A DNA stretch of 64,000 nucleotides, taken from assembly GCA_016869645.1 (NCBI GenBank), contig VGDO01000005.1, positions 6,885-70,884 of the forward strand, read 5' to 3'. Positions 2,865 through 61,618 of the stretch are shown here, piece after piece. Position 1 is the stretch's first letter. Each line of letters starts with the position of its first letter. This DNA is from Alphaproteobacteria bacterium (lineage in GTDB: Bacteria > Pseudomonadota > Alphaproteobacteria > SHVW01). The notes below the pieces were generated by a model. It saw nothing but the letters and a program-made list of their open reading frames with translations. It did no database searches and was not told the origin of the DNA. The position numbers and the translations under genes were made by a program.

Positions 2865-3878
2865 TCAAGCCGCCGTCTCGGTCGCCGCGCCGTAGAGGAA
2901 GCAGCGCACCTCGTGTGCGGCGTCGATGCGGTTCACCGGCGGCGTCGACTTGTCGCAGACGCCCGCCATGAAGCTGTGGCAGCGCGGGTAGTAAGGACAG
3001 CCCGGCGGCCGCGCATAGGGATGGGGAATGCTGCCGGCGATCGTGGCAAGCCGCGAGCGCGGCGCAGCCAGCACCGACGGGATCGAGCGCAGCAGGGCCT
3101 GCGTATAGGGATGCCGCGGCGCGTGAAAGATGGCATCGACCGGCCCCGATTCCACGATCTTGCCGAGATACATGACGGCGACCGAATCGGCCATCTCGGC
3201 GATGACGCCCATGTCGTGGGTGATCAGGATGACGGCAAGGTGACGCTCGGCCTGGAGCCGCCTGATGAGCTCGAGGATCTGGGCTTGCGTCGTTACGTCG
3301 AGCGCCGTGGTCGGCTCGTCGGCGATCAGGATGCCGGGCTCCGCGGCGAGCGCCAACGCGATCATGACGCGCTGGCGCAGGCCGCCTGAAAGTTCGAAGG
3401 AATAGGAATCGACGCGCTGCTGGGGCTGGGGAATGCCGACGAGCTGCAAGAGCTCGATGGCCCTCTCCCGCGCCTCCTTCGCCGTCAGCTTGCGATGGAG
3501 CCTGATCGCCTCGATGATCTGGTTGCCGACCGTGTGAAAAGCCGACAGCGAGCTCATCGGCTCCTGGAAGATATAGCCGATCGCGCCGCCCCGGATGTTG
3601 CGCATTTCCTGGCTCTTATCGTCGAGCTTGGCGAGATCGACGACGCGCCCATCGGCGCGGCGCAGCAGGATCTCGCCGCCTTCGACCCGGCCGGGCCGCT
3701 CGACGATGCGCAGGATCGAGCGCGCGGTCACGCTCTTGCCGCAGCCTGACTCGCCCACGATCCCGAGCGTACGGCCGGCATGGAGGTCGAATGACGCGCC
3801 GTCGACCGCGCGCACCACGCCCTCCTCGGGACGAAAATAGGTCACGAGATCGCGGACCGACAGGATCGGCTCAACCAT
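2865..3878 (-). CDS. ABC transporter ATP-binding protein (DppD/OppD-like)
   Basis: [30 protein letters not shown] and the HPYT...CPYYPRC tail. It overlaps the upstream permease stop by 8 nt. Confidence 0.9.
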
Positions 3879-5007
3879 AGGGATCGGCCGCGTCGCGCAG
3901 CCCGTCGCCCAGGAAGTTGAAGGCCAGGATGACGACGATCACCGGTACGGCGACGACGAGCAGCCATGGCGCCAATGCCAGCGCCTGGATGTCCTGCGCA
4001 TCCTGCAGCAGCACACCCCAGGAGATCGCCGGCGGCCGGAGGCCGAGACCGAGGAAGGACAGGGTCGTCTCGCTGATGATCATGGCCGGCAGCGCCAGGC
4101 TGATCGCGGCGATGATGTGCGACATGAAGGAGGGCACCATGTGCCGGAAGATGATGCGGAGCCGCGACGCGCCGGCGAGCTCCGCTGCGGTCACGAAATC
4201 CTCCTCGCGCAGCGCAAGGAAGCGGCCGCGCACCACGCGGGCGAGCTCGGTCCAGCCAATCAGCGAGATGATCACCGTGATCGCCATATAGACCTGGATC
4301 ACCGACCAGTCGTTGGGCAGCGCGGCGGCGAGGCCCATCCAGAGCGGAATGGTCGGGATCGAGCGCAACACCTCGATGATGCGCTGGATCACCGTGTCGA
4401 TCGCGCCGCCATAGAGACCGGAGATGCCGCCGAGCAGCACGCCGAGAAACAGCGAAAGCGCCACTCCAACCAACCCGATCGTCAGCGAGGTGCGCGTCGC
4501 CAGCATGAGGCGCGACCACACGTCGCGGCCGAGCTGATCCGTGCCGAGCAAGAACAACGCGTCCTCCGGCACGCCGCGATCGATGCCGAGCAGGTGACGC
4601 TTCGTCGCGATCAGGCCGAACAGCTCGTAGCCGTAGCCCTCGACGAACCAGGCGAGATAGCGCTTGTCCGACGGATCGGGCGCATAGACGAGCTTGAAGG
4701 TCCGCATGTCGCGCCGACCCTTGAGCGCGTAGACATGGGGCTTGAAGCTGCCATCCTCGTCGAACCAGTGGATCGTCTGCGGCGGGATGTAGCTGCGCGC
4801 AGAGTTGGTCGCGTGCGGCGACGTGATGGCGAGGAAGTCGGCGAACACCGCCACGAGATAGAAGAGGATGACGAGCACGCCGCTCGCGACGGCGAGCCGG
4901 TGCCGCCGCAGCCGCCACCAGGTGAGCTGAAGCTGGCTCGCGATCGCGATTTTCTCTTCGGCCGCCGTGACGAGCGGGACGGCCTGGTCGGCAACCGCGC
5001 CGCTCAT
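3871..5007 (-). CDS. ABC transporter permease (DppC/OppC-like, with N-terminal extension)
   Basis: The track ORF 3871..5778 is over-extended. The start was re-called at ATG 5007, which forms an ATGA overlap with the upstream permease stop. The BPD-transporter motif (EAA-like loop ...AAELAGASRLRIIFRHMVP) is present. Confidence 0.85.
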   Translation of the reverse strand: MSGAVADQAVPLVTAAEEKIAIASQLQLTWWRLRRHRLAVASGVLVILFYLVAVFADFLAITSPHATNSARSYIPPQTIHWFDEDGSFKPHVYALKGRRDMRTFKLVYAPDPSDKRYLAWFVEGYGYELFGLIATKRHLLGIDRGVPEDALFLLGTDQLGRDVWSRLMLATRTSLTIGLVGVALSLFLGVLLGGISGLYGGAIDTVIQRIIEVLRSIPTIPLWMGLAAALPNDWSVIQVYMAITVIISLIGWTELARVVRGRFLALREEDFVTAAELAGASRLRIIFRHMVPSFMSHIIAAISLALPAMIISETTLSFLGLGLRPPAISWGVLLQDAQDIQALALAPWLLVVAVPVIVVILAFNFLGDGLRDAADPYG

Positions 5008-5996
5008 TCGTGCATGCCCGCGCGGATGCGCGGGTCGATCCACATGAGAATCAGGTCGGATATGAACGTGCCGATCACGGTCAATATGCCGAGCAGAAGC
5101 ACGATCGTGCCTGCCAGGAACATGTCCTGGGCGAGCAGCGCGCGCAGCAGCAGCGGGCCGACCGTCGGCAGCGACAGCACGAGCGAGATGACGATCGAGC
5201 CGGAGACGACGAAGGGCAGCAGGTAGCCGATCGTGCTGGCGAAGGGGTTGAGCGCGGCGCGCACCGGGTACTTCATGACCGCCCGCCACTCGACGAGGCC
5301 GCGCGCACGCGCGGTCGTGACATAGGGCCGGCGCAGCTCGTCCAGCAGATTGGCGCGCATGATGCGGATGAGCTGCGCCGTGCCGGCCAGCGCCAGGATG
5401 ACGGCGGGCAGCGGCAGATGCTTCATCAGATCCCAGACCTTGCCCCAGGACCAGGGCGCCAGCTGGTAGTCGGACGAGAACAAGCCGCCGATGTTGAGAT
5501 CGAACAGCTTGAAGCCGAAATACATGATGATCAGCGCCAGCAGGAAGTTCGGCACCGCGATGCCGACGAAGCCGACGAAGGTGAAGATGTAGTCGGCGAA
5601 CGAGTACTGGCGCACGGCCGAGTAGATGCCGATCGGCAGCGCGATACCCCAGGTGATGATGATCGCCGCGAACGAGATCACGATGGTCATCCACAGCCGG
5701 TCGCCGATCACTTCGGTCACCGGCCGGTTCCATTCCATCGAGGCGCCGAAATCGCCCTGCACGACCCTGATGATCCACTTGCCGTACTGAACCCAGACAG
5801 GCTGGTCGAGCCCGTAAAGCTGTCGCAACGCCTGGGCCTCCTCGAAGCGGACGACCGACCCCGAGGCGGAAAGCTGCACGATATAGGCGTCGACGAAGTC
5901 GCCGGGCGGGAGCTGGATGATGACGAAGGTAACGACCGAGATCGCCCAGATGGTGAGGAGGGCGAGAATGAGGCGCCGGACGATGTAGGCGATCAT
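5004..5996 (-). CDS. ABC transporter permease (DppB/OppB-like)
   Basis: MIAYIVRRLILALLTIW... with six TM segments, which is the typical DppB architecture. Confidence 0.9.
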   Translation of the reverse strand: MIAYIVRRLILALLTIWAISVVTFVIIQLPPGDFVDAYIVQLSASGSVVRFEEAQALRQLYGLDQPVWVQYGKWIIRVVQGDFGASMEWNRPVTEVIGDRLWMTIVISFAAIIITWGIALPIGIYSAVRQYSFADYIFTFVGFVGIAVPNFLLALIIMYFGFKLFDLNIGGLFSSDYQLAPWSWGKVWDLMKHLPLPAVILALAGTAQLIRIMRANLLDELRRPYVTTARARGLVEWRAVMKYPVRAALNPFASTIGYLLPFVVSGSIVISLVLSLPTVGPLLLRALLAQDMFLAGTIVLLLGILTVIGTFISDLILMWIDPRIRAGMHE

Positions 5997-6054
5997 GCCG
6001 GCTCAGCCCCCAATTGTCGGGGGCTGAGCGGCATGTGCAGAGAGCAGTTCAGGG

Positions 6055-8115
6055 TCAATTCTTGTAGTACCAGGTCTCCGGATGCGCGCCGCCCGGCGTG
6101 CGGCAGTGCTGGGCGATGCAATTGCGCGACGGGACGTTGCCGAGCCGCTCGCTGACCAGCCTCACGCCCATCAGAGCCGGCGACTGGCCGACGGTTCCGA
6201 TCGCGTACTGCTGATCGATCAGGATCTTCCAGATCTCCTGCGCGGTCTTGACACGATCATCGGACTTCTGGCCGGCGGCGGACTGGTAGAGCTCGAAGAT
6301 CTTCATGATGTTCGGATCGTCGGGCTTCTTGCCCTGCGTGCCGCCCGAATTGAACCACTTGGCGTGCTCCGGACCCATGAACGCCTCGGTGGGATCGACC
6401 GGAATGGCGTGACGCGGGAAGAGATAAAGCAGCTCGGTCCCGCCATTGTTCCACACCATGATGTGGTGCTCGTTGTTCTGGGTCCGCGTGAAGGCGAGAT
6501 TGCGCTCAGTGTCCCGCACGTCGGCCTGGATGCCGACCTTGGCCCATTGATCGGCGACCATCTCGCTGATCTTGGGCCAGGGCAGGAAGGCTTGAACCGC
6601 CTGGACCTGCAGGCGCAGGCGCTGGCCGTTGTCGGTGCGCACGCGGAAGCCCTGGGCGTCCTTCTTGGCGAGCCCGATCGCATCGAGCATCTCGTTGGCC
6701 TTCTTCTGATCGAAAGTCGACCACTTCTCGCGCCAGCCGGGGCCCGGGAAGTAGGGCAGTGCCTCGCCCGGCGCCGTCGAGCCAGGGGTGGCGACGCCGA
6801 GCCAGAAGGTCTCGTTGAGCTGCTTGCGATCGACCGCGAGCGACAGCGCGCGCCGGAAGTCGGCGTTGCGCAGCCATTTCGCGATCTCGGGATCGGCCTC
6901 GAAGCTCTGGTTGAAATGATAGATCGCGTCGGTGCCGTTGAGCGCCAGGTCGAGATGGACCTTGTACTTGCCGCGCGTCTGGTTCTCCAGGATGACCGGC
7001 AGCTTGCCGATGTCGATGTGGCGCTCCTGCAGGTCGTACTCGCCGGCCATGGCGCGCAGGTTGAGAACCTCGAGGTTCTCCGCGAGCGTCATGGTGACGC
7101 GATCGAGATAGGGCAGCTGGTTGCCCGCCGGGTCGACGACCCAGTAGAACGGGTTGCGCTCCATGACCCAGATCGCGTTGTTGATCGGCTGGACCGTGCG
7201 CCACGGCCCGAGCACGGGAAGCGCCGGGTTGAGCGTCCAGTCCTTCTTGGCATGGAAGCGCGTCAGCCAGGTGTCGAAACCCTCCGCCTTGGCCGCGGCA
7301 TTGGCGGCCTCGACGCCGCCGGCATATTTCGGCAGGAACTGCTTGAGATAGTGCGCCGGCGCATAGGCGCCATGGCTGCGCTTGTTCGACTGCCGCACCG
7401 CCTGGCCGCCGCCGATGAGGGTGTCGCCCGCCATCAGGTCTTCGAACAGGTAGAAGGGCACGTCGAACACGAAATTGACCGTGTAGTCGTCGACCTTGAC
7501 GATCCGGCCCGGCTTGCCCTGCGGGGTCATATCGGGAATGCCCTGGGGCAGGATGTCCTTGTTCGAGTAGATGTCCTCGAACCAGAAGACGAAGTCGTTG
7601 GCCGTCATCGGCGCACCGTCCGACCATTTCAGGCCCTTGCGCAGAAAGAGCGTGAAGGTCTTGCCGTCGTCACTCATCTTCCACGCCTTGGCGAGCGACG
7701 GGTTTGGCTTGGCGCCGGTGTGATCGACGAGGAGCGGACGGTCGGAGGCGTTCAGGCGATTGCCGTTCTCGTCGTCGCCCGGGCCGGTGAAGCCGCGCCG
7801 CCACGTGCCGCCGTACTTGCCGATCTCGCGCACCGGCTTGATGACCATCAGATCCTCGGGCAGGCGATCCTTGACCGGCGGCAGCTTGCCTTGCTTCACG
7901 AGTTCGGCCAGCTGCGGCGCCTCGTTGAAGGTCTTCGGCCACTGTGCCGGGTCGGTGATGATGGTGATGCCCTCGGGCTGGCCGACCAGCCCCGACTGGC
8001 TGAGCGAACTCTGAGCCAGGGTTTCGGGCGCCGACGCAATACCGAAGACGAGCGCGGTGCCCAGCAGCAACCGGGCCAGCATGCTTCGCCCGAGTGTCAC
8101 AGTGCCGAGATTCAT
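6055..8115 (-). CDS. ABC transporter substrate-binding protein, family 5 (large, ~686 aa)
   Basis: Start re-called at ATG 8115 (GGGAGG RBS), giving the signal peptide MNLGTVTLGRSMLARLLLGTALVFGIASA. The body shows SBP_bac_5 homology. It lies upstream of permB on the same strand, so this operon is flanked by two SBP genes. Confidence 0.85.
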   Translation of the reverse strand: MNLGTVTLGRSMLARLLLGTALVFGIASAPETLAQSSLSQSGLVGQPEGITIITDPAQWPKTFNEAPQLAELVKQGKLPPVKDRLPEDLMVIKPVREIGKYGGTWRRGFTGPGDDENGNRLNASDRPLLVDHTGAKPNPSLAKAWKMSDDGKTFTLFLRKGLKWSDGAPMTANDFVFWFEDIYSNKDILPQGIPDMTPQGKPGRIVKVDDYTVNFVFDVPFYLFEDLMAGDTLIGGGQAVRQSNKRSHGAYAPAHYLKQFLPKYAGGVEAANAAAKAEGFDTWLTRFHAKKDWTLNPALPVLGPWRTVQPINNAIWVMERNPFYWVVDPAGNQLPYLDRVTMTLAENLEVLNLRAMAGEYDLQERHIDIGKLPVILENQTRGKYKVHLDLALNGTDAIYHFNQSFEADPEIAKWLRNADFRRALSLAVDRKQLNETFWLGVATPGSTAPGEALPYFPGPGWREKWSTFDQKKANEMLDAIGLAKKDAQGFRVRTDNGQRLRLQVQAVQAFLPWPKISEMVADQWAKVGIQADVRDTERNLAFTRTQNNEHHIMVWNNGGTELLYLFPRHAIPVDPTEAFMGPEHAKWFNSGGTQGKKPDDPNIMKIFELYQSAAGQKSDDRVKTAQEIWKILIDQQYAIGTVGQSPALMGVRLVSERLGNVPSRNCIAQHCRTPGGAHPETWYYKN

Positions 8116-8328
8116 GATGCCTCCCTTTCCACCGGATTGGCGATGCGTCCGGCGTTCTTGCTGCATTAGAGCACATGTTCGGCAGACGGGGTCAACCCCA
8201 GGCAAATGTGCTGATTGTTGGCAAATCGACGACGAAACCTGCCGTGCCGGCGCCGCAACGACAAGCGTTCGGAATCGGCAACTTCGACTTGCTGGCTATC
8301 TGATCTTGCAATGGGTTGCTGACGCGCG

Positions 8329-57066: not shown

Positions 57067-57595
57067 GAGCCGTGGCCTGGGTCGATTCCGACGACGATGC
57101 TGCCGAAATCGTCGTTCATCGGGAGTCTGGCCGGGCGCCGCGAGGGGCCGCGATTCGGGTGTCGCGCGCGATTCGACCACGCGTTGACTTCATCGGCGAC
57201 AACCAAATGCTGTATTTGCTGCGCGCGCGGAGTAAAGCGCGCGCAAGATGACCCGATTGTTCTTTGACTGTCAACTCGGGGGCGGGGTTCTTTGGCAGTG
57301 GGATCCCTGGCCCCATTTCGGCGTGCCCAGGCCGGCCCACCCTCGTGGCGGCCCACGTAGGCCGCGCGGTCGGGGCAAGCGTGAACCGCAGACGAGGGAA
57401 GCCACGATTCTTTTCCCCGGCAATCGTGGTTAATGTTGACAAGCGGCCGGCATTTTCGGTTTTATCGCTCGTGCAGAGTCGGACCCGCAGGCGCAACCGA
57501 GTGCGATGCGTGGCTGAGGCGACGATGGGGGGCCAAATTGCTGCAGGCGCGGGGGCGCCGGCGGCGTCAGCATCAGATCATTGAAGAGTGCACCA

Positions 57596-57937
57596 ATGGC
57601 CGCCCCTGCGCTCACCGGTCCTTTGCCGCTCAATGCCGAAAGTGTGAAACTCGCCATCCCGCGCAAAAGTCCGGGCAGCTACGTGCTTGGTACGATGACG
57701 GACGGCGAGCTCGAGGCACGCCACGTCGGGCGCTCGGATACCGATGTGGCCGACCGGCTGACCGCGCATGTCGGCCAATATCCGTCGTTCTGCTTTGCAT
57801 ACGCGACCTCCGCCTTGGCCGCATTCGAGCAGGAATGCGAGCTGTACCACGCGTACATGTCGTCGAGCGGTGCGGCCCATCCCGCGCGTGCGCCGAACTC
57901 GGGCTGGCGCTGCCCGCGCTGCGCGGTGTTCGACTAG
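57596..57937 (+). CDS. Small standalone GIY-YIG nuclease family protein with C-terminal CxxC
   Basis: GSYVLG...RHVGRSD...DRLTAH...FCFAY...ELYHAY follows the GIY-YIG motif order, and the C-terminal end is GWRCPRCAVFD. The track ORF starts at TTG 57581, and the first ATG is 57596. Confidence 0.6.
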   Translation: MAAPALTGPLPLNAESVKLAIPRKSPGSYVLGTMTDGELEARHVGRSDTDVADRLTAHVGQYPSFCFAYATSALAAFEQECELYHAYMSSSGAAHPARAPNSGWRCPRCAVFD

Positions 57938-58182
57938 CGAAGCCGCCGTCGCCGCCCTTGGATCAGGGCATGTACATCCCTGACGGCGACCAGATAGCCG
58001 TAGTGCCAATAGGCCCGCTCCGGCGAGCCGGCATCGAGATGTCGCTGCTCCTTCCGCGGATCGGGCACCGTCTGCGCCAGCCAGCGCGCCAGGTCATAAG
58101 CGCGTTGCTTGAGCACGGTCCTGATGGCGGCGAGGCCGGTTGGTTTGCGCGCGATCTTGCGCTTTGTGGCTTGACGTCGGCT
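57934..58182 (-). CDS. Hypothetical small protein (83 aa), convergent with the GIY-YIG gene
   Basis: The ORF has genome-typical codon bias. Its 3' end overlaps the GIY-YIG gene stop by 4 nt. No family was recognised, so this is weak. Confidence 0.3.
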   Translation of the reverse strand, partial: SRRQATKRKIARKPTGLAAIRTVLKQRAYDLARWLAQTVPDPRKEQRHLDAGSPERAYWHYGYLVAVRDVHALIQGRRRRLR

Positions 58183-58265
58183 CATGGCCGGACAAATCGT
58201 CCGGGCTCGACGAGCGTTCCGTGAGAATTTTGGGCCGCCCATGCCGATCATGGGCAGGGTCTTGA

Positions 58266-59273
58266 TTAGAAGGGCAAAATCATCGATGCCACGAGGCCGA
58301 GCCCCGTGCGATTCTCACCGGTCAGGCGCGCCGCCCCCTCGTTGATTGCACGTGGATTGACGATGCGTTGCTCGGCGTAGGTGCTTTCGAGAAGGGCCTC
58401 AAGCCGCGCCAAGGCTGATCCAATTCTCGCCACCAGCCCGACAGTCGTCGTGCCGCGCCAGTCCCAAGATGAACGGGTCACGTCGACGTTCGAACGGAAG
58501 AACGCGCCGTCGCAGGGAATGGCGCCGTCGCCGCCCGCACAGTCGTCACCCGTGAGTTTCGCGCGTGAACGCAACATGGCGCCCTTTACGCCCAGGTTGA
58601 GCTGCACACCCTGCGTGAGTTCGAAGCCCACGCCGAGGCCCAATGCGGGGCCCACATAGGTGCGCGACACCGTCTCATTTGCGAAATCGCGAAACGAATC
58701 ATGCTCCACAATGTCCAGGCGATAGTTCTGGCGCCCCCGGCCGATGACGAAGCCGGCCCACGGCGTGAAGGTCACTCCCGGAGCCGCCGTGACAACCTCG
58801 CCCGAAACGCCGATCTCAACAGTGGTCTCGCGGTGCTCGACCCGAAGACTCGTCTGCGCCGGCAGCTCCATGTCGATCTGGACACCGCCACCGATGCCGA
58901 CAAGAAACGGCGAGCCCGCCATGCTCACGACGCCGGCGCTGCTAGCGGCGCCATCGACGTGGCCAACCGAAGCGCTCAGGCGAAGCTCCTTGAGCCAGGT
59001 CGCCATCCCGTCGAGCCGAGGCAACGCCAGACTTCCGCGCAATTCGACGGCCGCCGATCGTTGGTCCAGCCGCTCCGACACAATGGCGCCTCGGCTATCC
59101 TCGCGACCATAGCTGAACTGCGCAGATTGCCAGTGGCGCACACCAATCGCGGGTTCGATCGTCAGGTTGATTGCCTCGGCGGCCGCGGCGGGCCGCGCCG
59201 ACGCAACGACATGAATTGCCAACACGAGGGCCGCCGTCACGGCCAGTCCGCGCGGCACTTCTGGACGAATCAT
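58266..59273 (-). CDS. Putative outer-membrane beta-barrel protein
   Basis: Signal peptide (MIRPEVPRGLAVTAALVLAIHVVASA). The sequence is Gly/Val/Thr-rich and alternating, and it ends in the C-terminal ...LVASMILPF (terminal Phe), a typical OMP signature. Confidence 0.55.
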   Translation of the reverse strand: MIRPEVPRGLAVTAALVLAIHVVASARPAAAAEAINLTIEPAIGVRHWQSAQFSYGREDSRGAIVSERLDQRSAAVELRGSLALPRLDGMATWLKELRLSASVGHVDGAASSAGVVSMAGSPFLVGIGGGVQIDMELPAQTSLRVEHRETTVEIGVSGEVVTAAPGVTFTPWAGFVIGRGRQNYRLDIVEHDSFRDFANETVSRTYVGPALGLGVGFELTQGVQLNLGVKGAMLRSRAKLTGDDCAGGDGAIPCDGAFFRSNVDVTRSSWDWRGTTTVGLVARIGSALARLEALLESTYAEQRIVNPRAINEGAARLTGENRTGLGLVASMILPF

Positions 59274-59373
59274 GTGCGCCGCCTTCCCCCGCTTCCACGG
59301 CAACGTCGGAAATCAGATTAGATACTGCAGCGCCTGGTCCGCAAGACCGGTCTGCGCCCGGCGCCCAACGCAA

Positions 59374-60159
59374 CTATGCCGGCAGCGCCCAGAACTCGCG
59401 GTTGGCGACCAGGCGCGCCACCGCGTCGGCGGCGGCATCGAGCAGGCGCTCGCCCTTCTCGGCCGTGGCGGCGCGCGGATCGCCGATCGCGCCGTGGCTG
59501 GTGCGCGACTTGAACGAGCGATAGCGCACGGCGGCATCGGTGCCGATCACCTCCTTGAGCTCGCGCCCGGTCGGACCGACGGCATCCTGCGCCCGGCCCA
59601 TGTCGACGAGATCGGGAACGATGGCGAGCAGCATCGAGGTTTCGGCCTCGCAGGCGTGGCGCACATTGCTCTGCTTCTCGAGGATCTTGCCGAACGCATC
59701 GGCGGCGAGCAGCCAGTAGGACGTCGTCGCGATCGGCGCCGAGAACTCGATGGCGAAGTCGTTGACGATGGCGGTCAGCGCCGCGATGTTGCCGCCGTGG
59801 CCGTTGAGCAGCAGAATGCGCTTGAAGCCGTGCCGCGTGATCGAGCGCACGATGCAGCGCAGCAGCGCGTGAAAGGTCGCGAGGTCGAGCGACAGCGTGC
59901 CGCCCAGGCTCATGTGATGCTCGGCGAGGCCGCTCCACACGGTGGGTGCCACCACCACCGGCATGTCGCCGTGGTGGCCGCCGATGACGCGTCGTGCGGC
60001 GCGGCGCGAGACTTCGCCGGCCAGCAGCGCATCGACCTGGGTCGGCAGATGGGGGCCGTGCTGCTCGGTCGAGCCGACGGGCACGATGACGACCGCGTCG
60101 CGCTTGGCGAGATCGTTGAGCTCCCAGGCCTTGAGCCGCCACCATTCGAACTCGCTCAT
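59374..60159 (-). CDS. Creatininase (creatinine amidohydrolase) family protein
   Basis: ...[16 protein letters not shown]...LLNGHGGN... are the creatininase motifs. ATGA overlap with the upstream ATPase stop. Confidence 0.85.
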
Positions 60160-60935
60160 CGTTCCCTCCTGGTGCCGCCTTCGCGTTCGAGCAGCCGCTC
60201 CAGGAACGCGCGCGTGCGCGCCTCGGCGGGCTGGCTGAAGATGCGGTCGGGCGGCGCGCGCTCGACGATCGCGCCGCGGTCCATGAACACGACGTCGTCG
60301 GCGACGTCGCGCGCGAACCCCATTTCGTGGGTCACCACCAGCATGGTCATGCCCTGCTCGGCCAGGCCACGCATGGTCTTGAGCACCTCGCCAACCAGCT
60401 CGGGATCGAGTGCCGAGGTCACCTCGTCGAACAGCATGATGCGCGGCCGCATGGCGAGCGCGCGCGCGATTGCGGCGCGCTGCTGCTGCCCGCCCGACAG
60501 GCGCGCCGGGTGGACGTCGCGCTTGTCCTCGAGCCCGACGCGGCGCAGCAGCTCGATCGCCTGCGTCTCGGCCTCGGCCGCTGCCATGCCGCGCACGCGC
60601 CGCGGCGCCAGCGTGATGTTCTCCATCACGGTCAGGTGCGGGAACAGGTTGAAGCTCTGGAACACCATGCCGATGTCGTGACCGCCGGTCTTGTCGGGCG
60701 CCGGGCCTTCGTCCTCGGTGCCTTTGGCCGAGAGCACGCCATCGATCAGGATCCGGCCCTTCTGGATCGGCTCCAGGCGGGCGAGGCAGCGCAGCAGCGT
60801 GCTCTTGCCGGATCCCGAGGGGCCGATCACGACCATGACCTGGCCGGTGCGCACCTCGAGGCTGACGCGGTCGAGCACGGTCTCCGCGCCGTACCGCTTC
60901 ACCACGCGATCGATGACGACCAGAGGCTCAGCCAT
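60156..60935 (-). CDS. Polar amino-acid ABC transporter ATP-binding protein
   Basis: Start at the M of [16 protein letters not shown].... [28 protein letters not shown] and [11 protein letters not shown] are present. Confidence 0.9.
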
Positions 60936-60952
60936 GTTTCGGGTTCGTTGCC

Positions 60953-61618
60953 CTAGACCCGGCTGGCCGCGAGCCGCCGCTCGATCGCCTGGAAGGCGAG
61001 CGCGATCGGATAGGTCAGCACGAAATAGGCGATCGCCACGATGGTCAGCGATTCGACCGGCCGGAAGGTCTCGAGCGAGATGAGCTGGCCGACGCGCAGC
61101 AGCTCGGGCACGCCGATCGCGGTTGCGAGCGCCGTGCCCTTGACCAGGTAGATGACCGTGGTGCCGGTCGGCGGCAGCACGTTGCGCCAGGCCTGGGGCA
61201 GGATGACGAAGCGCAGCGTGTCGGTCAGGCTGAGGCCGAGCACGCGCGAGGCCTGCCACTGCGTGCGGTCGATGCCGGCGATGCCGGCGCGGAAGATCTC
61301 GGCGAAGAAGGCGGCGATGTTGAGGCCGAGCGCCACGGCGGCCGACCAGAACTCGTTGAGGTCGCGGCCGAAGAACATCGGCAGGCCATAGTAGAGCCAG
61401 ACGATCTGAACCAGAGGCGGCGTGGTGCGAAAGAATTCGATATAGGCATAGGCCGGCCAATCGAGCCAGGGAACGCGCGAGTAGCGCATGAGCGCGAGCA
61501 TCAGCCCCAGCACGAGGCCGAGGCCGATGCTCACTGCGCTCATCTTGAGGGTCAGCAGCGCGCCGTCGACGATGTCGGGCCAGTAGCCCACCACCATGTC
61601 GAAACGAAAGCTACCCAT
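60953..61618 (-). CDS. Polar amino-acid ABC transporter permease
   Basis: HisM/HisQ-like permease with the EAA loop ...[34 protein letters not shown]. Confidence 0.85.

Follow-up and report, generated by a model that had tools for sequence, protein, structure and literature searches.

Stand-alone GIY-YIG domains of about 100 amino acids (aa) are common in bacteria: the Slx1-like/YhbQ proteins (COG2827, UPF0213) match the PF01541 profile strongly and are not known to have a Cys/His cluster, and a stand-alone mini GIY-YIG protein is thus not unusual in itself. Here, we analyze the gene for a 113-aa protein in a stretch of 64,000 nucleotides (nt) from an alphaproteobacterial contig (GenBank VGDO01000005.1, positions 6,885 to 70,884; the whole stretch, 66.6% GC, is referred to below as the window), which an earlier note had read from the letters as a stand-alone mini GIY-YIG nuclease with a structured promoter region, divergent from a hybrid kinase. 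The closest described analogue is COG1833/DUF123 (PF01986), an uncharacterized group from archaea and some bacteria in which a small stand-alone GIY-YIG domain is followed by a C-terminal His/Cys "metal-binding cluster" (PMC1564403). The same source describes the non-eukaryotic group of Slx1 proteins and shows that the C-terminal Asn is missing from some accepted GIY-YIG families, e.g., Slx1 and COG1833 (PMC1564403). We find that the window gene is real and, as far as profile and structure comparisons can place it, belongs to a new family or variant within the known GIY-YIG superfamily. Comparison of related loci further identifies its conserved functional neighbor as a small convergent open reading frame (ORF) that the earlier note mentioned only in passing; this tail-to-tail pair and the size of the unannotated family were both overlooked there.

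Results

A small protein with a predicted GIY-YIG fold

The two genes of the pair are as follows.

57596..57937, + strand: gene for the GIY-YIG-fold protein (predicted), 113 aa, with a putative metal site at C81, H85, C106, and C109; H95-P96 is invariant too
57934..58185, – strand: partner gene, 83 aa, from 18 homologues and gene calls; the start is uncertain, and gene callers use ATG 58185

The ORF at 57596–57937 has GC fractions of 0.64, 0.56, and 0.79 at codon positions 1, 2, and 3, the pattern of a real gene. We take ATG 57596 as the true start because the homologues share the matching N-terminus M-A-x-P-x-L-x-G-P, while translation from the upstream alternative, TTG 57581, would append residues without a counterpart in any homologue. 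The 113-aa ORF of the earlier note thus stands, as does its C-terminal CxxC, found as C106-P-R-C109.

No significant profile match was found for the window protein in Pfam or NCBIfam (in Pfam, none at E ≤ 1), and a sequence search of the PDB returned nothing significant. Four lines of remote homology nevertheless agree. PF01541 gave weak, sub-threshold matches in 14 of 107 aligned relatives (best E 1.3e-5); among the matches listed, the best scored 22.0 bits, all fell below the gathering score of 22.6 bits, and no other family recurred meaningfully across the 107 relatives. AlphaFold2 with the deep family alignment gave a model with pLDDT 95.6 and pTM 0.87, against a pLDDT of 82 when only three sequences were supplied, and confidence in the C-terminal tail rose from ~55 to >90; the model has the GIY-YIG alpha/beta fold, with a three-stranded sheet and helices on its flanks. 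The top five Foldseek matches were all UvrC GIY-YIG domains (each with prob 0.98–0.99). Finally, hhalign aligned the family with the N-domain of Thermotoga maritima UvrC (1ycz, whose sequence we checked and found identical to the PDB entry) at E 3.4e-4. Because these lines agree, we consider the superfamily placement well supported, and the window protein is confidently predicted to have a GIY-YIG fold. The assignment made in the earlier note therefore survives on fold and remote homology, although the profile match on which that note would have had it depend does not exist in Pfam or NCBIfam; the UvrC N-terminal domain is the best match in both structure and profile.

The hhalign alignment pairs G27-x-Y29 of the window protein with G17-V-Y19 of UvrC, 43-V-G45 with Y29-I-G31, R54 with R39, H58 with Y43, E80 with E76, and position 92 with N88, so that the canonical positions of the window copy read Y29, H43, R54, H58, E80, and G92. 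The GIY Tyr (UvrC Y19) is kept in G27-S-Y29, the catalytic Arg (UvrC R39, I-TevI R27) is present as R54 with H58 as the His/Tyr four residues on, and the metal-binding Glu (UvrC E76, I-TevI E75) is present as E80. The YIG Tyr (UvrC Y29) is lost (H43-V-G45), and so is the C-terminal Asn (UvrC N88), replaced by G92. Motifs in canonical order, as previously described, are therefore seen for GxY, the catalytic Arg, and the Glu, but not for the YIG Tyr or the C-terminal Asn. From His43 and Gly92, we predict that catalysis by the window copy may be reduced or altered.

A large family without annotation

A profile made from three close homologues was searched exhaustively against 1.84 billion representatives and recovered 1256 of them at E ≤ 1e-3 and 678 at E ≤ 1e-10. 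Members are typically 108–125 aa long and form more than 1000 clusters at 50% identity across bacteria, archaea, and prophages, with a patchy spread over Acidobacteriota, Alphaproteobacteria, Actinomycetota, Chloroflexota, Marinimicrobia, Bacteroidales, Bathyarchaeia, and Nitrososphaerota. In a database of 5.8 billion proteins, every one of the 120 best relatives goes by the name "hypothetical protein" and lacks a precomputed Pfam domain; one distant actinomycete member, on a Nocardiopsis plasmid, is labeled "GIY-YIG nuclease family protein" by its annotators. A search of the literature on GIY-YIG domains with REC, PilZ, or antitoxins found nothing describing the family. Profile comparison places the window gene in this large unannotated family of GIY-YIG-fold proteins (~110–120 aa), which is marked by an extra conserved set of Cys and His residues.

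The domain core consists of a beta-hairpin (GxY...YVGRSD), a helix with the Arg, a strand, and a helix with the Glu, to which the family adds an N-terminal strand and helix before the core and a C-terminal tail after it. Near-invariant positions are G27, G45-R46-S47-D48, D50, L55, F65, A76, E80-C81, H85, H95-P96, and C106-P107-x-C109; of these, G27, G45, R46, D48, L55, E80, C81, H85, H95, P96, C106, and C109 are 96–99% conserved (E80, 97%). The canonical positions vary more: position 29 has Tyr in 74% of members and Phe in another 24%, position 43 has Tyr in 62%, position 54 has Arg in 63%, position 58 has His in 49%, and position 92 has Asn in 77%. In the model, C81 and H85 lie one helical turn apart on the helix that bears the catalytic-type Glu E80 (residues 73–87), and C106 and C109 form a knuckle within the C-terminal tail. 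This arrangement suggests a putative zinc site of C-H-C-C type, or one containing H95, that would clamp the tail onto the catalytic helix.

The window copy has no partner domain of its own, in keeping with the earlier description of a stand-alone protein. That description does not extend to the family, in which longer relatives carry N-terminal modules, namely REC (P0053, P0072), PilZ (P0132), and membrane/zinc-ribbon segments, and it passed over the conservation of the convergent neighbor. Three further relatives of 235–251 aa (P0010, P0014, and P0028) share a conserved N-terminal domain of ~120 aa that has no Pfam match and by eye resembles a degenerate receiver, so that these proteins may be fusions of a pseudo-receiver with the GIY-like domain.

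A conserved tail-to-tail pair

The small convergent ORF is a real gene, with 18 homologues and the strongly conserved core R..L..WL...AP.C..EQRHLD.GT.ERAYWHYGYLVALRDV (alignment A4). Comparison with Pfam, NCBIfam, PHROGs, and PADLOC assigned no domain to the partner. Its stop codon and that of the GIY-like gene overlap in CTAG (57934–57937), confirming the 4-nt overlap recorded earlier. Using a hidden Markov model of the partner family, we found the pair in six genome loci (the window, L004, two Bryobacterales of the Acidobacteriota, and two Hyphomicrobiaceae), in 25 of 59 metagenome loci fetched with the partner as bait (about half of those with adequate flanking DNA), and on one predicted viral contig (L122), where it lies between a helix-turn-helix repressor-like gene and a phage lysozyme gene. 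The orientation is convergent in all 32 paired loci. The stop codons share the tetranucleotide [CT]TA[AG], a 4-nt overlap, in 13 of these; most of the remaining loci have coding overlaps of 12–104 nt, and two instead have gaps of 1 and 8 nt. The two proteins co-diverge (r = 0.59, Mantel P = 5e-4; 28 pairs, 31–100% identity), from which we conclude that the two genes are inherited together, in Alphaproteobacteria and Acidobacteriota as well as on one predicted viral (prophage-like) contig. Paired copies of the GIY-like protein mostly retain the canonical residues (Y29 in 28/29, Tyr at position 43 in 22/29, R54 in 24/29, E80 in 29/30, and N92 in 28/31), which makes the window copy, with H43 and G92, an outlier.

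The overlaps in the two Hyphomicrobiaceae loci, 104 nt (L019, 4263–4366) and 47 nt (L010, 278–324), are far above the usual 4 nt, and the C-termini of both proteins are there encoded on opposite strands of the same DNA. The partner also occurs without a GIY-like gene: in arrays of small PHROG-matching genes with a PAPS-reductase-like gene and an orphan DNA methyltransferase (L006, L007), on two IMG/VR contigs, and in a Stellaceae metagenome-assembled genome (L005), where it adjoins an unrelated hybrid kinase. We considered the L005 kinase as an orthologue of the window kinase and rejected it, as the two have only the generic catalytic core in common. A search for alternative partners, either of unpaired GIY-like genes or of unpaired small ORFs, found none, save for lineage-specific synteny in actinomycete and actinophage groups. 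One partner homologue of 117 aa (P0156, on a 633-nt ENA contig) has a C-terminal extension that matches PF08681 (DUF1778, TacA-type antitoxin), which may be a fusion or a read-through into an adjoining antitoxin gene.

Mobile-element and defense-like contexts of relatives

A distant actinomycete subfamily that has the Cys/His set sits in a conserved operon with a GHKL ATPase (HATPase_c_3), which resembles PADLOC MzaB (E 1.6e-11), and a weakly DndB-like protein of 645 aa. The operon, which looks like an undescribed defense-type operon, was found at the following loci.

L037 and L040–L044, ~3870–8250: actinomycete operon in Streptomyces, Saccharothrix, and Amycolatopsis
L127, 5516–8116: actinomycete operon on a Nocardiopsis plasmid (CP054934)

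On the plasmid, it is flanked by genes for an HNH endonuclease, a MazG-like pyrophosphohydrolase, a DUF2075 protein, and a transposase. On a low-GC viral contig, the GIY-like gene adjoins an S24 (LexA/CI-type) repressor gene. A Solirubrobacterales genome (L013) and viral contigs of high-GC, actinobacterial type (L116–L121) have in common an ORF of 500–580 aa (~1200–2940) directly upstream of the GIY-like gene and co-directional with it; this ORF has no Pfam or PADLOC match.

The upstream spacer and neighboring genes

The divergent neighbor of the window gene encodes a hybrid histidine kinase (PAS-HisKA-HATPase-REC-Hpt). Gene callers on identical metagenome contigs give a 1051-aa protein that starts at ATG 57066, whereas the longest ORF adds 114 nt (57067–57180) up to GTG 57180; this extension has no bias in GC content at third codon positions (GC3), and together these results make ATG 57066, and not GTG 57180, the most likely start of the kinase. 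The spacer is consequently 529 nt long and not ~415 nt as earlier estimated. Its features are as follows.

57067..57595, unstranded: non-coding spacer, 529 nt, common to the divergent hybrid kinase, from GC3 analysis and gene calls on identical contigs
57091..57115, unstranded: perfect 8-bp inverted repeat ACGACGAT-N9-ATCGTCGT, 25 nt upstream of the kinase ATG and absent from the earlier note
57220..57245, unstranded: perfect 9-bp GC hairpin TGCGCGCGC-N8-GCGCGCGCA; neither strand has a T-tract, and the kinase start is ~155 nt away
57264..57274, unstranded: palindrome TTGACTGTCAA, no more than expected by chance
57402..57429, unstranded: perfect 8-bp inverted repeat CCACGATT-N12-AATCGTGG directly next to the putative –35, a candidate operator that is unique in the window
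57436..57465, + strand: putative promoter TTGACA-N18-TTTTAT, with a consensus –35 (57436–57441) and a poor –10

The elements that the earlier note listed are for the most part physically present, but their reading as a structured promoter region finds no support beyond one genome. The 57402 inverted repeat is where it was noted. The 9-bp hairpin is perfect, with its arms at 57220–57228 and 57237–57245 and not within 57215–57244; the palindrome exists but is not unusual (5-1-5, P = 0.22). TTGACA and, 18 nt downstream, TTTTAT likewise exist, yet they fail a standard sigma-70 scan because the –10 has no A at position 2. That these inverted repeats are operators or structured elements governing a sigma-70-type promoter of the window gene strikes us as distinctly unlikely. 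The repeats are real and unique within the window, the 57402 repeat abuts a consensus –35, and, although a single 8-bp short-loop inverted repeat is expected in ~25% of dinucleotide shuffles, three independent ones of 8 bp or more are seldom seen together (P = 0.002 compared with dinucleotide shuffles; only 2.5% of the real 529-nt windows in this sequence reach that number). Against this, the 57402 repeat, the only one included in the pattern search, is absent from all 44 related loci, and upstream of the nearest homologues lie other genes and short, unrelated spacers: P0002 (66% identity) begins ~75–150 nt after a co-directional DHDPS gene, and P0003 (46% identity) lies 65 nt from a divergent msrB. 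Folding energies are no better than those of shuffles for the spacer (z –1.16) or the putative 5' untranslated region (z 0.22), and an Rfam search of the spacer gave nothing beyond one chance-level match; we accordingly rejected a known RNA or structured leader. The repeats may just as well serve the kinase, which shares the spacer: half of them are closer to its start, and two of the three inverted repeats lie within 180 nt of it. The ten other contigs with an identical protein are 99.87–100% identical over 3 kb and therefore hold no sequence variants that would allow a phylogenetic test of constraint on the repeats. At most, the inverted repeats are local features of this spacer and candidate operators.

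The 57091 repeat, which may belong to kinase regulation, has an ACGAT/ATCGT core in common with the 57402 repeat but a different spacing. We also considered a pairing of 57547–57557 with 57601–57611 (11 nt, 91% complementary) that has one segment on either side of the GIY-like start codon and its ribosome-binding region, appears in the minimum-free-energy fold, and could sequester the ribosome-binding site; we rejected it since its energy is no better than that of shuffles, and it is probably meaningless. No ORF in the spacer shows codon-position GC bias, hence there is no hidden small gene. The divergent-kinase layout described earlier is not conserved: a kinase lies within 4 kb in only 1 of 37 genome loci, and we therefore rejected a functional link to the hybrid kinase.

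On the other side of the pair, just upstream of the partner gene and on the same strand, 58266–59303 (–) encodes a 345-aa protein (335 aa by gene callers) with a signal-peptide-like N-terminus; it is unannotated in identical contigs and has only a sub-threshold match to an outer-membrane beta-barrel profile (PF13505, E 0.0025). A creatininase-family gene followed by ABC transporter ATPase and permease genes occupies 59374–61618 (–). In the Stellaceae partner-only locus (L005), creatinase and hydantoinase genes likewise adjoin the small ORF.

Discussion

We tentatively propose, at somewhat less than an even chance, that the GIY-like product is a small Zn-stabilized nuclease acting as the effector of a mobile conflict module and that it is controlled by its partner through protein inhibition and/or interference by convergent transcription. 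The effector would be a putative GIY-like nuclease within a horizontally mobile two-gene module of the toxin or defense type; the small helical partner would control it, whether as an inhibitor that binds it or by setting the level at which it is expressed; and convergent transcription over the shared 3' end would add mutual antisense interference. The REC and PilZ fusions of relatives suggest that cells keep the activity of the domain signal-gated, and the partner-only copies in gene arrays of phages and mobile elements would fit an inhibitor that such elements borrow. We count in favor of a conflict function the patchy bacterial and archaeal spread, the prophage positions, the defense-like operon, the plasmid copy, and the partner-only arrays.

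Several observations weigh against this proposal. Neither protein of the pair has a significant match in PADLOC or PHROGs, tblastn matched neither of them in sequenced phages, and tblastn of the partner against plasmids returned nothing. The window pair sits amid ordinary metabolic genes (creatininase, ABC transporter) with no obvious island, and most GIY-like genes have no partner, which accompanies them in ~4 of 37 loci from genomes and in 1 of 11 viral ones. Known type II toxin–antitoxin systems are co-directional, autoregulated operons, whereas the present pair is convergent with overlapping stop codons. The window copy lacks a significant profile match of its own in Pfam or NCBIfam and carries His43 and Gly92 at two of the six canonical positions. 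In the family as a whole, conservation is no higher than 62–77% for the canonical Tyr43, Arg54, and Asn92 but exceeds 96% for the Cys/His set, R46, and D48, a pattern which hints that the conserved function is perhaps other than classical GIY-YIG catalysis.

That last point is the starting place for a different explanation, in which the domain is not a nuclease but a signaling or regulatory module that binds nucleic acid and serves for output or as an adaptor, under the control of REC phosphorylation or cyclic di-GMP (c-di-GMP) in the fused forms, with the window copy as a non-catalytic stand-alone version that perhaps works with the adjoining hybrid kinase. We regard this as unlikely. The REC and PilZ fusions do put the domain at the position of an output domain, conservation does peak in the Cys/His cluster, R46, D48, and D50 and not in the canonical Tyr, Arg, and Asn, and here the copy with H43 and G92 has a divergent hybrid kinase with REC and Hpt domains for a neighbor. 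However, kinase adjacency is confined to 1 of 37 genome loci, the L005 kinase is not orthologous, enzymatic effector domains too are often fused to REC and PilZ, and the metal-binding Glu, E80, is 97% conserved, with most paired members keeping the full catalytic set. The protein could instead be a housekeeping nuclease for DNA repair, from the UvrC/Cho/COG1833 lineage; it would then make incisions as a stand-alone enzyme with a metal-binding cluster, recruited by other repair factors. Such a role would suit the UvrC N-terminal domain as best match, the Glu-to-Asn spacing of 12 (equal to that of UvrC), and the precedent of COG1833, a ~150-aa stand-alone GIY-YIG protein with a C-terminal His/Cys cluster that was proposed for repair (PMC1564403). 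It sits poorly with the patchy distribution and highly variable neighborhoods, the occurrence in prophages, plasmids, and defense-like operons, the absence of PF01986 (DUF123) among the matches listed and of repair-gene neighbors, and a conserved neighbor that is a tiny uncharacterized protein and not a repair factor; we consider it quite improbable. The variable, intergenic contexts would be explained by a selfish gene for a free-standing homing endonuclease of GIY-YIG type, which spreads through cleavage of alleles that do not contain it, and the fold typical of such enzymes, the patchy distribution, and the copies in viral contigs are in line with this. GIY-YIG homing endonucleases of the I-TevI type, however, have C-terminal DNA-binding modules (NUMODs, a Zn finger with a helix-turn-helix) for long targets; none is present in the 113-aa protein, which consists only of the core and a 25-residue tail, and no relatives were found in sequenced phages. 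We think a homing function very improbable.

Returning to the conflict module with a Zn-stabilized nuclease as its effector, a more far-reaching version may be formulated, which we regard as doubtful: a new conflict or defense module made up of a minimal Zn-clamped GIY-YIG nuclease and a convergent helical regulator of ~55 residues, in which the stop-codon overlap couples the genes, the domain is reused as a REC- or c-di-GMP-gated (PilZ) output, and mobile genetic elements carry the partner alone as an inhibitor. [quoted passage not shown]

Neither protein family of the pair has had an annotation so far. Once the family is recognized as GIY-YIG-fold with its own metal cluster, a new profile and the annotation of thousands of ORFs become possible. 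If the nuclease–inhibitor interpretation is true, a very small effector–regulator pair joins the conflict systems cataloged in prokaryotes, and two-component and c-di-GMP signaling gain a GIY-YIG output domain that is signal-gated. For the window itself, the gene is real, a fold is assigned, and the promoter architecture is unsupported.

Comparison with known systems

UvrC is a repair protein of ~600 aa in which the GIY-YIG domain forms the N-terminus and is accompanied by UvrB-binding, EndoV-like, and HhH domains, whereas the window domain is alone. Identity between the two is 18%; the window protein adds the N-terminal strand and helix and the Cys/His cluster, has His in place of Y29 and Gly in place of N88, and behaves in genomes as an accessory gene. 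The GIY-YIG restriction and defense nucleases (R.Eco29kI, PD-T4-3, T4 EndoII) are larger, at 134–250 aa, and have insertions for DNA recognition; the present pair includes no methyltransferase or modification partner and has no significant PADLOC match. Slx1-like proteins lack the C-terminal Asn motif (PMC1564403), which most of the present family keeps. The family also differs from them in falling below the PF01541 gathering threshold. COG1833 comes closest, since there too conserved Cys and His residues come after a small GIY-YIG domain that stands alone. Yet PF01986 is not among the matches listed for 107 members (25 of 40 matched families) and does not match any of 10 diverse members at E ≤ 10. 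In COG1833, moreover, the C-terminal Asn is replaced by Asp or by the cluster, whereas the His/Cys cluster of the present family (H95, C106, and C109) is joined by C81 and H85, putative ligands inside the catalytic helix, and the Asn is kept in most members (77–90%). As a two-gene system, the pair is unlike type II toxin–antitoxin systems in that its partner has no recognizable DNA-binding or antitoxin domain. It resembles toxin–antitoxin and nuclease–immunity pairs in combining a putative nuclease with a very small partner, in its inheritance as a unit, in its patchy spread and presence in a prophage, and in the copies of the partner that mobile elements carry alone.

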